A stretch of DNA of 62,703 bases, filler included, from Rhabdomonas costata (taxonomy: Eukaryota), in NCBI GenBank assembly GCA_019059605.1. It is 42 parts of 42 records of this genome, joined end to end, with 100 filler letters (N's around TTAATTAATTAA, not from the genome) between each part and the next. Parts side by side here need not be neighbours in the genome. Positions count along the whole stretch, not along the records: positions 14,958 to 16,353 come from JAHMHO010017170.1; 41 more parts are not named here. One strand, 5' to 3'. Positions within the stretch are counted from its first letter, which is position 1; each line of letters begins with the position of its first letter. A model generated the notes under the pieces. It was not told the DNA's origin, searched no databases, and worked only from the letters and a program-made list of their open reading frames with translations. Positions 14,858-24,676 of the stretch are shown here, in pieces. The translations under genes and the position numbers were made by a program.

Positions 14858-15583
14858 NNNNNNNNNNNNNNNNNNNNNNNNNNNNNNNNNNNNNNNNNNN
14901 NTTAATTAATTAANNNNNNNNNNNNNNNNNNNNNNNNNNNNNNNNNNNNNNNNNNNNGTTGGTGTGGGCACTTGTTCGGGTTCATGTGTTTCTTGTGTTG
15001 CTGTAATGGGGCTGGTGGTGGCGGTGGCCTCCACGGAACTGCACCGACCTTTTTCCTTGGCTTTTTGGGGTGGCTGCGGGACCCGGAGTGCTTCCCTGGC
15101 CGCTTTGAGTGGTGCGGAGCGGACGGCTTTTCTTTCTTTCTTTCGTTGGTACTTTTCCCAACCCGCTGCAAATTACCGTGCGTGCCCTATGTACCGGATC
15201 CAGAAAAACAAAAACTTTACTATCCTACATTGACAAAGACCAACTCTTTAAATTTCAACGGGACCCCCCTTTTTTTTCGGAAGCGGAAAACAGCAGCTAC
15301 GGAACCGTGCGCACAAAAGGGTATCAAAAGCCAAGTCCATGTATCACACGCCAACCGTAAAAAGCCGACCAGACTATCATAAGATATATACAACTCTTGT
15401 ACAAATGGCCCTCCCTTCCGCTCGACTCCGGCGCGTGCTGAGTCCAACGCAAAGCTTTTTGCAAAAGATGGCATATAGCACGGCGAAAAAAAATCGCAGG
15501 TCACGCAGTTGCACAATGCACACGGAGAAGCATCCCCGTTGTAACTGGGGCAAAACGCCAGCAAGGATGCCATAGCCGAACCC

Positions 15584-16348
15584 TTACAGAGACTGGAAGC
15601 TGCCCCACTTCCGCGCCTCTGTCAAGTTGCAGAGGACGGTCACCTTATCGAGAACGTTGAGCTGCAGCAGCTGACGCCGGGCATTGCTCGCGTCCGAGCA
15701 AAACACGACCACTTGGCCCTTATACCCCAGCTGGCGGAGCTGCTTTACTAGCCGAGCTCCAGCGCCGCGATCCAGTGCGTCGCGGTTTGCAGGGTCCTCC
15801 CCCTTGCGTGACATGTCGGTGATAATGCGGAAGTAGTCCAGGCCCAGCTGCAAGGCACCCGGGTTCACCCGCACCCACTGCTCAAGCTCGGGCGTGGAGG
15901 AAAGCCAGTGGACCACCACTCCGCTGTCGCGAAAATTCATCCGAAGCGCCTCGTTCTGCTGCCACTGGTCATCCACCCACAGCAGCTTGGGTCTGTTTTG
16001 TGTGTCGAAGCGCTCCACCTCGGTCATCTCTATCGTAGGCGGGTTGCCCGCGTTCGGTGGAGTAACACTGTCTACCCTCCAGAAAGTCAGCACACTATGC
16101 ATCACCTCTTCTTCGGTAGGGTACTCTGAAAAAGTCCGCACGTAACGGCCTGACTTACTGCGAAGCTTAAAAAGGAGCGACCCCATTGAGCCAGCGAAGC
16201 GCTGCGCCTGCGCTTTGGAGATGGAGGTGCTCAGGACTCCAACGTACCCTATCACTCGACCAGGGCTGTATAACCGAAAGAGCTCGTCCAAGGTGAGATC
16301 ATTGCGTTGCCCCCACCAAACTAGCGTGGTGCCCCCTTCGTCTACCAC
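15584..16348 (-). CDS. 5'-truncated intronless gene: R-S-E type ADP-ribosyltransferase domain fused to a C-terminal response-regulator receiver-like domain
   Basis: VWWG...YSPGRVI...LSTS...AQRFAG...FSEYPTEEEV (ART), then KLLWVDD...FRIITDMSR...AGARLVKQLR...VVVFCS (REC); 254 codons open from the contig edge. Confidence 0.8.
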   Translation of the reverse strand: MVDEGGTTLVWWGQRNDLTLDELFRLYSPGRVIGYVGVLSTSISKAQAQRFAGSMGSLLFKLRSKSGRYVRTFSEYPTEEEVMHSVLTFWRVDSVTPPNAGNPPTIEMTEVERFDTQNRPKLLWVDDQWQQNEALRMNFRDSGVVVHWLSSTPELEQWVRVNPGALQLGLDYFRIITDMSRKGEDPANRDALDRGAGARLVKQLRQLGYKGQVVVFCSDASNARRQLLQLNVLDKVTVLCNLTEARKWGSFQSL

Positions 16349-16459
16349 ACACCNNNNNNNNNNNNNNNNNNNNNNNNNNNNNNNNNNNNNNNNNNNNTTA
16401 ATTAATTAANNNNNNNNNNNNNNNNNNNNNNNNNNNNNNNNNNNNNNNNNNNNGTTGGT

Positions 16460-17824: not shown

Positions 17825-18058
17825 GTCGCCATGCCTTACCCACAAAAACNNNNNNNNNNNNNNNNNNNNNNNNNNNNNNNNNNNNNNNNNNNNTTAATTA
17901 ATTAANNNNNNNNNNNNNNNNNNNNNNNNNNNNNNNNNNNNNNNNNNNNGGTTTTGGTGTGAACCATTGGCTGCCCGTATGCGCGTGCAAGTCCTGTTGT
18001 TTTTGTTTGAATACTGTAGCTTGATTAGTTAATCTGGGGGCATTTGTGGGTTACATGC

Positions 18059-19186
18059 CTGGTGGGTGTGCCGCGTTGGTGAGGCTCATCAGGAACACCG
18101 CCGAGGCGACCGCGAGCCCCGATGAGAAGCACCGGAAGTCATATGGGTCCCCGAACGCAGAGAAGATTTTCTGCACGGTCACCCCGGCCAGGGCAGACAC
18201 CACGTGACCCAACACAAGGTTGCGGGGCTGCGCCAGCGGGGAGGAGATCGCATTGTAAACCAGCACTGCGGAGGCTCCAAAGCTGGGCACGATCATCGCC
18301 AGGTCGGTGCGCTCTAGAGCGCCAAAGTGGATGGCACCCACCGTGGCGATTCCGATGAATGTGAACAGGGTAGACCACACCCGGGGAGCTGCAAAGAGAT
18401 CAGAGAACCGCCGCCAATGCGAAACTGACGAAGAAAGATACGGTATTGAAGCGCTAATAAAGTGGTCATGGCGTGCAACGCTCAAGTATGCATGCCTCGG
18501 AAGATGGCCCACTATTTTTAGGACACCACACCTCGGCACTGAGCCGTGGCCAGAGGCTGCATAAGCACGGCAGAGGAGCACTGCCATTGGTCCAGGTACC
18601 AAACCAATCAAGCTATGATGCCCAATGCCTGACAGCTCTGTTTCCGTCGCGAGGGGAGGAGTGAGGGGAGGAGTAATCCAGGGCTGACGCTCCAGCTAAG
18701 ACGCAGAAATCTCAGAACACCCTTCTGCACGAAACAATACCGCAGCCCAGTTCTCAGAACCGAACTTGCTCATTCCTAAAAAGCGTTTTAACGCATACGA
18801 CTTCACAACACACCAAACGAACCCCAGAGCTCCGATGGAGGACGGGCAGCACCAGGGCGACCCTTGAACTTCATCACATACTCCATCCACCAACCACGGG
18901 GCTCCACTACTGCCCCCACGCTCTCCCCAATCTCGGGATCTCTGGGTGCCTTGCCCGAACTCGACCCCCCACTATCACAGGCCGGCCCGGGGTCTGACAG
19001 AGGCATTTCAACAACGTGTGGAGGAGGGACCGGACCCATGGACACCGCATGAAAGGCTCGGGCATCAAGAGCAACGACGGGGTCTTGGGAGGTCACCGGC
19101 ATGTAGTCCGTGGGGAACTGGCCGTTTTCTCTTTCTACTGGAACCCCTGGCAAGGCCTCCGTTCCGGCGCTGTCGCAGGAAGCCAT
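18059..19186 (-). CDS. HPP-family integral membrane protein, first two exons (18823-19186, 18059-18388)
   Basis: PSFGASAVLVY..SSPLAQPRNLVLGH...AVASAVFLMSLTNAAHPPG signature; phase-1 GT-AG intron joins PSELW-A-PRVWS; next donor is probably GC. Confidence 0.9.
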
Positions 19187-23933: not shown

Positions 23934-24676
23934 GACATGCGGAGGTTGTGGCGCTGCTGTGCGAGCGCGGGGCGCCCGTTGACTGTGTGGACACGCAGGG
24001 GCGCACTCCGCTGTACCTCGCGGCGAGGTACGGGCATACCGCGGCCGCTGCGGAGCTTTGCCGGCACCGTGCAGATGTCAGCCTGGCGCAGAAGGATGGG
24101 TATGTACCTTTGCACACGGCCTGCCAGATTGGTCACCGCGACACTGCGGAGCTGCTGCTGCACTGTCAGGCCGACGTCAACGTTGCTGCAAAAGACGGGG
24201 CGACTTCTCTTTACGTGGCCTGTCAGGATGGCCATCGCGACACTGCAGAGCTCCTGCTGTGCAGTGGGGCCGACGTCAACAAAGCAAGGCACACTGGTGC
24301 CACCCCTCTGTACATTGCGTGCATGAATGGCCACCGCGACACGGCAGAGCTGCTGCTGCAAAGTCACGCTGATGTCAACAAGGCGAGAAACGATGGGTGC
24401 ACGCCTCTTCTCATCGCCTGCCAGAAAGGCCACCGCGACACGGCGGAGCTGCTGCTGCATCACCATGCCAACATCAACACTGCAATGGATGATGGAGACA
24501 CTCCTCTTATTGTTGCTGCGGCCAAGGGGCACGGTGAGGTTGTGGCGTTGTTAGTGGAGCACGGGGCGGACCTAACTGTGGAGTCTAATGGGGCGGACGC
24601 GGAGTGTGCACGGCGGGAGGGGTACGGCGCGGTACTGCAGCTGCTGCAAAAGCTGTCGCAGGCGAAGCCGAAATAA
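23934..24676 (+). CDS. Ankyrin-repeat protein, C-terminal part (6 full repeats plus partial ones), intronless here
   Basis: 33-aa repeats GxTPLxxACxxGHRDTAELLLxxxADVN; stop at 24674-24676. Confidence 0.95.

Follow-up and report, generated by a model that had tools for sequence, protein, structure and literature searches.

Background

In excerpts of a 2010 review (PMC3102197), the R-S-E triad of ADP-ribosyltransferases (ARTs) is given as essential for NAD binding, the E-x-E motif as the mark of the arginine-specific members, and unicellular eukaryotes as seemingly lacking these arginine-specific ARTs. Here we describe a partial coding sequence of the eukaryote Rhabdomonas costata (assembly GCA_019059605.1), located on contig JAHMHO010017170.1 within a 62.7-kb stretch of DNA (1-62703, hereafter the window), whose product, referred to as the query, joins part of an R-S-EXE-type ART domain to a C-terminal domain of the receiver, or CheY-like, fold. 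The explanation that we consider rather probable is that the query belongs to an uncharacterised family of intracellular effectors which are related to R-S-EXE ARTs and end in a receiver-fold switch, and that the query copy itself is a pseudo-ART.

The R-S-EXE ARTs (PF01129), amongst them ART2, Vis, Tre1, HopU1 and XopAI, share with the query the fold, profile matches at E-values of 1e-15 to 1e-22 and the S-x-S and E-x-E motifs. Unlike these enzymes, the query carries a Trp in place of the motif-1 Arg, only about the C-terminal half of the domain is present on the contig, and a receiver-type C-terminal domain follows, for which no counterpart is named in the titles of the solved matches listed. 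Canonical receivers (PF00072; CheY, PhoP, PorX) resemble the query domain in the (beta-alpha)5 fold, with a Z-score of 12.5 to PorX, and in an acidic pair and an acceptor position that lie in register. However, the query domain lacks the Lys of beta5, has conserved residues of its own (W, S-T, R at D+3 and A-G), stays below the Pfam threshold and is placed C-terminal to an effector.

The cRec domain (cREC_REC, PF20274) is presented, in excerpts of PMC7824862 and PMC9503650, as a receiver that belongs to NAD/ADP-ribose systems of phages and bacteria and is predicted to process cyclic phosphates. Like the query domain, it is a divergent receiver tied to ADP-ribose enzymes and, in the same excerpts, it is not described with histidine kinases; unlike it, cRec occurs on Nudix proteins, whereas the query family is eukaryotic and its domain occurs on ART or PARP. 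PF20274 had no match in the query at E<=10, nor in 86 relatives at E<=0.01; the positive control, the Nudix-cREC protein of Serratia phage BF (AQW88638.1), scored 87.5 bits. Although ART and PARP dominate amongst the partners of the receiver-type domain described here, partners without an evident connection to ADP-ribose (U-box/RING, fungal helical and GAF/acylphosphatase) are also present.

A BUBL-type 'polyubiquitin' of Tetrahymena thermophila (XP_001012667.2; UniRef Q236S8; P0067 amongst the relatives analysed below) aligns over both query domains with its C-terminus (residues 902-1113). Its receiver part scores 103 bits and the motif residues R, S-x-S, E-x-E, DD, D and R are all there; it differs from the query in its intact motif-1 Arg and in the ubiquitin-like and HINT/BIL domains upstream, a region that is off the contig in the query. 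Published work on this protein, as excerpted from PMC8616854, deals with its BIL2 and ubiquitin-like domains. The histidine-kinase-independent receivers of conflict systems (vWA-MoxR/SAV_2336) have been proposed, in excerpts of PMC8195603 and PMC7159879, to be effectors or nucleotide-responsive switches. One such protein, P0138, contains two copies with the same signature as the query family; the partners there are GAF and acylphosphatase, whereas here the partner is an ART, and the kinship is a matter of profile E-values between 4.8e-8 and 7.8e-4.

The coding sequence and its relatives

The coding sequence lies on the minus strand of a short contig and runs off its end.

14958..16353, no strand: contig carrying the coding sequence, 1,396 bp, with 100-bp linkers on both sides (N-run map and contig split)
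15584..16353, minus strand: partial coding sequence, 254 full codons (16348..15587) followed by a TAA stop (15586..15584)

The 254-codon frame, and every motif that the initial annotation had listed in it, were found at the positions given there. For the frame itself, which had been delimited as 15584..16348, the stop and the codons stand, but the start at 16348 does not: upstream of this position there is neither a stop nor a start, and the frame is still open at the last base of the contig, 16353. The N-terminus of the gene is absent because the contig ends at this base, and comparison with 79 relatives places the missing length at about 120-235 residues. No intron is needed over 15584..16353; the relatives align colinearly in a single stretch (e.g. 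query 30-250), and the C-terminus of the query coincides with the end of the family consensus. By simple arithmetic, the chance of an open frame of 254 codons in DNA of ~50% G+C is (61/64)^254, roughly 5e-6, and this low probability, together with the colinear alignment to 112 database proteins, indicates that the frame is more than a chance occurrence. An alternative genetic code was set aside, the frame being open under the standard code. With the same reasonable confidence, which applies to the favoured explanation as a whole, the contig is taken to carry the 3' two-thirds of a eukaryotic gene. Motif positions were placed by direct translation and then by comparison with 59 relatives, HopU1 and CheY.

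An exhaustive HMMER search of 1.84 billion representatives yielded 112 relatives at E<=1e-3, including 28 at E<=1e-10, the best at 1.6e-19 and 34% identity. Word-index protein searches with the query, amongst proteins of near and of longer length, gave no match, and the exhaustive search was needed. Searches with the single protein covered the genomes of 185,579 prokaryote species and a set of metagenome contigs and detected no close relative, and a tblastn search of 50,697 phage records with the receiver-type domain was without a match. The receiver-domain profile and PF00072 had no match in the records of phages BF and rV5 either, an empty result that shows nothing.

The relatives are cluster representatives (cited by their P numbers where one has to be told from another), and all 112 were aligned to the family hidden Markov model (HMM) with hmmalign. 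Both the ART and the C-terminal domain are present in 87 of them, while 18 have the C-terminal domain only in the aligned part and seven the ART only, the latter being fragments and a phage head protein. The members include ciliates (Tetrahymena thermophila, T. utriculariae and Stentor), foraminifera (Bolivina and Nonionella) and bdelloid rotifers (Adineta, Didymodactylos and Rotaria), and all named relatives that span both domains are eukaryotic. The architecture is not unique: at least 87 cluster representatives have it, the T. thermophila BUBL-type protein included. In public databases it is found with automatically assigned names, e.g. 'NAD(P)(+)--arginine ADP-ribosyltransferase' or 'CheY-like chemotaxis protein'. 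A search of full-text literature, whose coverage did not extend to the likeliest place (Aravind et al. 2015), found no description of a eukaryotic ART with a receiver-type domain.

The ART half

Residues 1-113 of the query correspond to the C-terminal part of an ART domain, in which the three catalytic motifs could be located as follows.

16010..16348, minus strand: C-terminal ~half of an R-S-EXE-type ART domain, residues 1-113 (Pfam, profile and Foldseek)
16313..16315, minus strand: TGG codon, Trp12, at the position of the NAD-binding Arg of motif 1 (V10-W11-W12-G13 on VYRG of HopU1)
16223..16231, minus strand: S40-T41-S42, motif 2 (S-x-S), on STT of HopU1
16106..16114, minus strand: E79-E80-E81, motif 3 (E-x-E), on EEE of HopU1

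On its own, the query scores 20.9 bits against Pfam ART (PF01129; E 2.4e-4, profile positions 140-203 of 222), which is 1.4 under the cut-off of 22.3, and matches ADPrib_exo_Tox at an E-value of 2.4e-3; the gathering score of Pfam ART is reached by 66 of the 86 relatives scanned (53/59 and 13/27). Its best solved relative by sequence is HopU1 (E 0.012), in an alignment that pairs W12 with the Arg of VYRG, STS with STT and EEE with EEE. A profile of 60 family members detected Vis (1.7e-22), a Tre1-type toxin (1.7e-22), rat ART2 (3.8e-20), XopAI (1.9e-18) and HopU1 (3e-15) in the PDB. The AlphaFold model of the whole fragment, computed on the family alignment, has a pLDDT of 93.6 and a pTM of 0.73, and Foldseek searches with it returned HopU1 as the best match (E 5.4e-7), along with XopAI, Vis, iota toxin Ia, C3, Tre1 and ExoS. 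The family profile, the model and the Foldseek matches thus identify residues 1-113 as the C-terminal half of an R-S-EXE ART domain, and the ART domain that had been proposed initially is borne out.

The motifs are well conserved across the family. Of the 90 relatives with a residue there, 72 have Ser at position 40; position 42 is occupied by Ser or Thr in 73 of 90, E79 is retained by 91 of 94 relatives and E81 by 91 of 93 (hmmalign). The motif-1 position has a residue in 82 relatives, which is Arg in 77 and P, A, K, T or G in the remainder; Trp is seen in the query alone. The Arg-to-Trp change reported in the initial annotation is therefore real in the assembly and unique amongst the relatives, and its suggestion of a pseudoenzyme is a fair one. 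Accordingly we class the query as descended from the family and as a candidate pseudo-ART rather than as a catalytically defined R-S-E enzyme.

The receiver-type domain

The region following the ART half adopts, in its predicted structure, a receiver fold with a recognisable acidic pocket.

15587..16000, minus strand: receiver-type (CheY-fold) domain, residues 117-254 (AlphaFold, Foldseek, VIA-align and family HMM)
15968..15973, minus strand: D126-D127, acidic pair after beta1 (CheY D12-D13)
15806..15817, minus strand: D178-M-S-R181, Asp of the acceptor position at the end of beta3 (I-I-T177-D178) with an invariant Arg (CheY D57 and M60)
15695..15700, minus strand: C217-S218 at the end of beta4, the Thr/Ser position of receivers (CheY T87-A88)

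The AlphaFold model of residues 114-254 has a pLDDT of 95.4 and a (beta-alpha)5 layout. The matches listed by Foldseek for this model are receivers (PhoP at 3.6e-5, RssB, ArcA, PrrA, PmrA and others), at TM-scores of 0.6-0.7 by target length. VIA-align, which is independent of Foldseek, places the PorX receiver first (Z 12.5, root-mean-square deviation 2.3 over 113 residues), and receivers make up most of the 50 matches listed. TIR and other flavodoxin-like folds were considered for this domain and do not occur amongst the 50 matches listed by either aligner, which is an absence and not an exclusion. An hhalign comparison with E. coli CheY sets WVDD on D12-D13, TD (D178) on D57, R181 on M60, AG on the Gly of helix 3 and F216-C217-S218 on T87-A88. 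The receiver fold and acidic pocket noted at the outset are thus confirmed, with DD and D in register with CheY, although the query alone falls under the Response_reg cut-off.

Conservation of this site is high. W124 is kept in 101 of 103 relatives, D126 in 99 and D127 in 97 of the same number; T152 is present in 97 of 105 and R181 in 102 of 105, and both A196 and G197 in 98 of 101. D178 occurs in 92 of 105 relatives, with Asn in nine. At position 217 in beta4, amongst the 98 relatives with a residue, 48 have Thr, 40 Cys and 3 Ser, and the query has Cys. The subfamily therefore has invariants of its own, namely a Trp before DD, a Ser-Thr after beta2, an Arg at D+3 and an Ala-Gly that starts helix 3, and its beta3-alpha3 loop is ~15 residues longer than in canonical receivers. 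No Lys is found at the end of beta5 in the query (L239-C240-N241), and the family has no conserved Lys column there, Thr being the commonest residue at 239. The receiver is atypical, as initially suggested, and the absence of this Lys, remarked on then for the query, is a property of the whole subfamily.

Link to bona fide receivers and to bacterial proteins

A profile of the C-terminal domain built from nine sequences and searched against longer proteins gave 20 matches: 13 fusions with an ART (Rotaria socialis and Stentor coeruleus amongst them), one protein with UBA and U-box/RING domains, and six non-ART proteins at E-values of 4.8e-8 to 7.8e-4. The six have in common the signature LWVDDxPxNN / STxEA / SDMxR / AG, and four of them pass the gathering score of Response_reg (P0138 at 60.3, P0142 at 43.5, P0140 at 35.4 and P0143 at 35.1 bits). 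Because its profile reaches proteins that pass Response_reg and bear the common signature, the C-terminal domain is, as judged from sequence and model, genuinely part of the receiver superfamily, though an atypical part, and forms a recognisable subfamily of its own; by sequence, the homology of the query to receivers holds transitively only.

P0138 is a protein of 1,799 residues from Bradyrhizobium nitroreducens, with a SAV_2336 N-terminal domain (SAV_2336_NTERM, 243.9 bits against a cut-off of 200), two receivers of the subfamily, GAF domains and an acylphosphatase. As the nearest solved relatives of the ART are bacterial toxins and effectors, and as the receiver profile reaches this Bradyrhizobium protein, a bacterial ancestry of both modules appears plausible.

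A separate observation on P0138 is that its acylphosphatase stands beside receivers without the canonical Lys. Acylphosphatases are a class of enzymes that hydrolyse acyl phosphates.

Domain partners of the receiver-type domain

The fusion of an ART to a receiver-type domain reported in the initial annotation was recovered in 87 of the 112 relatives, but the domain is not exclusive to ARTs, and PARP, U-box/RING and fungal helical partners also occur. A PARP catalytic domain follows the receiver-type domain in P0073 and P0101 (Pfam PARP, 4.9e-8 and 2.6e-9), two of the 18 relatives in which the C-terminal domain alone was aligned, so that one receiver subfamily is tied to both ART classes; the acidic pocket of these two copies is degenerate (DP/DH and Asn) and the invariant Arg is kept. 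In P0137 the domain is fused to U-box/RING. Six more of those 18, all of fungal type, P0072 (Jaapia argillacea KDQ56017.1), P0107, P0112, P0046, P0089 and P0084, have a helical N-terminal region and no ART, and P0112 contains two copies of the receiver-type domain. The sole lead for this helical region is an MLKL_N/RPW8-like match with a score of 0.88, under the 0.9 bar.

Upstream of the ART, the relatives carry ubiquitin, HINT/intein-like, PDZ, MIB_HERC2 and cytidylyltransferase-like domains. The fusions to ubiquitin, HINT and PDZ suggest that the proteins are intracellular rather than secreted. They would probably act in the cytosol.

On examination of relatives in which the ART motifs are ruined, namely P0087 (T/E/S/D/Q), P0056, P0061 and P0018, the DD-D-R set was found to be intact. 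Since the receiver site outlasts a ruined ART in these proteins and in the query, the domain appears to do something in its own right.

In one further relative, P0004 (Adineta ricciae CAF1429812.1), the ART and receiver-type domains are followed by a C-terminal cytidylyltransferase-like domain (Pfam PF01467, E 3.7e-5). This protein may join an NAD consumer to a nucleotidyl-transferase of NAD metabolism.

Proposed mechanism and alternative explanations

In the explanation that we favour, the C-terminal domain would be a portable switch or sensor with an acidic pocket (DD, D) of the Mg/phosphoryl type, from which the canonical Lys has been lost. Its input could be Asp phosphorylation or a phosphate-bearing ligand, and the domain would set the activity or the partners of the effector to which it is fused, usually an ART. 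A regulatory or sensory role is suggested because the domain combines a conserved site of its own with interchangeable partners (ART, PARP, U-box/RING, a helical cell-death-like domain and GAF/acylphosphatase). Regulatory modules on interchangeable outputs are what receivers are.

Several points tell against this explanation. The N-terminus is off the contig, and any counterpart of the targeting or ubiquitin-like parts of the relatives is out of view here. Pfam Response_reg (PF00072) scores only 14.8 bits on the query against a cut-off of 30.2 and, amongst 86 relatives, a lone weak match was obtained (P0002, 22.1 bits); profile matches to PDB receivers are non-significant (E 0.49-1.7), and hhalign aligned E. 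coli CheY with poor statistics (E 0.041, probability 1.3%). An organism name is attached to just one of the six non-ART relatives. The DD..D pocket, intact in 87 of 103 relatives, also fits real Asp phosphorylation or catalysis, and no experiment on the ART or receiver-type domain of any member was found. As for the ART half, the Trp may be an error of base calling or assembly on a 1.4-kb unplaced contig, and Arg15, three residues past Trp12, could conceivably compensate for the lost Arg.

If the Trp stemmed from faulty sequencing or assembly, or from a rare allele, the real gene would encode an active R-S-EXE ART. TGG is one transition away from CGG, at a would-be CpG site, every other catalytic motif is intact, and besides the 1.4-kb size of the unplaced contig, the adjoining one starts with an inverted repeat of the artefact type; at the codon itself, relaxed constraint and a lone C>T error at a CpG of a low-quality contig would be indistinguishable. 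However, the ART half of the query is more divergent than that of most relatives. Against HMMs built without the query, its ART part obtains 64.9 bits, a score exceeded by 25 of 30 non-training relatives, whereas its receiver part obtains 117.5 bits and is exceeded by just 13 of 34. Other conserved ART positions are changed as well (F90>W, W35>Y, F38>V and P86>V), and this divergence at multiple positions is better explained by relaxed constraint on catalysis than by one isolated error. The motif-1 Arg is also missing in five relatives. In a FastTree analysis of 83 two-domain sequences, the query joins three relatives with a support of 0.805, and its terminal branch is 1.56 long against a median of 0.57. 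An error at this codon seems fairly unlikely to us, and the ART half as assembled is most likely a pseudo-ART that would be catalytically crippled, with the switch domain fully kept.

The phosphorelay suggested in the initial annotation would have a histidine kinase/HPt pathway phosphorylate D178 and so activate or inactivate the ART. The correspondence of the acidic pair and acceptor to CheY D12/D13/D57, their retention in 87 of 103 relatives, the Thr, Ser or Cys at the beta4 position and the related non-ART proteins that pass Pfam Response_reg are all in keeping with such a relay, as is the presence of family members in Tetrahymena thermophila, for which excerpts of PMC6324907 give 70 histidine kinases. 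However, the Lys of beta5 is gone throughout the subfamily, including the relatives that pass Response_reg, and where Asn stands at the acceptor position (nine of 105 relatives) R181 is still there. Moreover, the family has representatives in foraminifera and rotifers, and the excerpted text of PMC6324907 counts 0 histidine kinases in one sequenced foraminifer. Receivers of conflict systems have also been proposed to work without histidine kinases, possibly as nucleotide-responsive switches (excerpts of PMC8195603 and PMC7159879). Phosphorelay gating is unproven: nothing supports it directly, the Lys loss, the Asn-bearing relatives and the foraminiferan and rotifer members speak against a strict His-Asp relay, and we regard it as unlikely.

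A more speculative extension of the switch reading, to which we give little weight, is that the domain represents a histidine-kinase-independent receiver subfamily derived from bacterial defence-type proteins. It would be a sensor of a phosphate-bearing small molecule, possibly derived from NAD or ADP-ribose, and in ciliates, foraminifera, rotifers and fungi would arm one of several effectors, namely an arginine ART, a PARP, a U-box/RING ligase or a pore former of the MLKL-like kind. If true, this would amount to an immune-like 'sensor plus effector' toolkit of eukaryotes, in which the query copy would be a pseudo-ART that keeps the sensor, e.g. as a decoy or regulator.

Alternatively, the receiver-type domain could itself be an enzyme, a cRec-like phosphoesterase that acts on ADP-ribose derivatives downstream of the fused ART or PARP. 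The occurrence of two ADP-ribosyl-transferring folds as partners (ART in 87 representatives and PARP in 2) and the presence of three acidic pocket residues along with an invariant Arg and Thr would agree with this, as would the precedent of cRec, a divergent receiver whose partners are exclusively NAD/ADP-ribose-processing enzymes and for which catalysis is predicted, in excerpts of PMC7824862 and PMC9503650. However, besides the missing match to Pfam cREC_REC in the query at E<=10, hhalign against the Nudix-cREC protein of phage BF found nothing, a connection with ADP-ribose is not evident for some partners (U-box/RING, the fungal helical region and GAF/acylphosphatase), and the pocket is degenerate in the very copies that are fused to PARP. 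A catalytic role is, in our view, very unlikely.

That the contig is a bacterial contaminant or the frame a decaying pseudogene is highly improbable: relatives of both modules exist in bacteria, the contig is too short for binning and one catalytic residue is lost, but all named two-domain relatives are eukaryotic, close prokaryotic relatives were not found in the genomes and metagenome contigs searched, the composition is within the spread of the other 41 contigs (G+C of 55.4% against a 42-contig mean of 52.3, standard deviation 2.9; 12 other contigs have larger dinucleotide-signature distances), and the 254 codons are open with nearly all family-invariant residues kept.

Other features of the window

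The window comprises 42 unrelated contigs of 1,394-1,396 bp each, arranged in descending order of length (N-run map) and separated by 41 linkers of 100 bp, each made up of 44 N, TTAATTAATTAA and 44 N. As unrelated contigs are strung together, gene order, introns and neighbourhood across the linkers carry no meaning, and the window lends no support to the protist origin or the intron-dense genome of the initial annotation. A tblastn search with the query and the 112 relatives gave matches confined to the contig 14958-16353, and no other contig of the window holds the missing 5' part of the gene. Amongst 137 other frames of at least 110 codons, just two have a Pfam match at E<=1e-4; these, and a repeat at the start of the next contig, are listed below. 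Rfam gave no match over the whole window.

18054-18695, minus strand: frame with an HPP family transmembrane region (Pfam PF04982, E 2.4e-31)
23936-24673, plus strand: ankyrin-repeat frame (Pfam Ank_2, E 7e-56), covering almost the whole contig and open at the contig start
16457-16580, no strand: inverted repeat that opens the next contig, with 58 nt arms, 98% complementary and 8 nt apart

The inverted repeat looks like a chimeric-read or fold-back artefact of assembly, and serves as a warning on the quality of small contigs.

Implications

The query copy, as a truncated and probably inactive member, adds little by itself beyond pointing to the family. The family is an unstudied but sizeable one, and both of its parts are of known kinds. 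Judged by sequence motifs, it would place arginine-type ARTs widely in ciliates, foraminifera and rotifers, in contrast with the 2010 review, and it has a T. thermophila member in the BUBL polyubiquitin locus, which has been studied before. The ARTs of the family travel with a distinctive receiver-type module (87 of 112 relatives) that is not recognised by Pfam models at threshold. Because the module is also found on PARP, ubiquitin-ligase and cell-death-like domains, it is a good candidate for a general eukaryotic switch, one that would link a signal to ADP-ribosylation.

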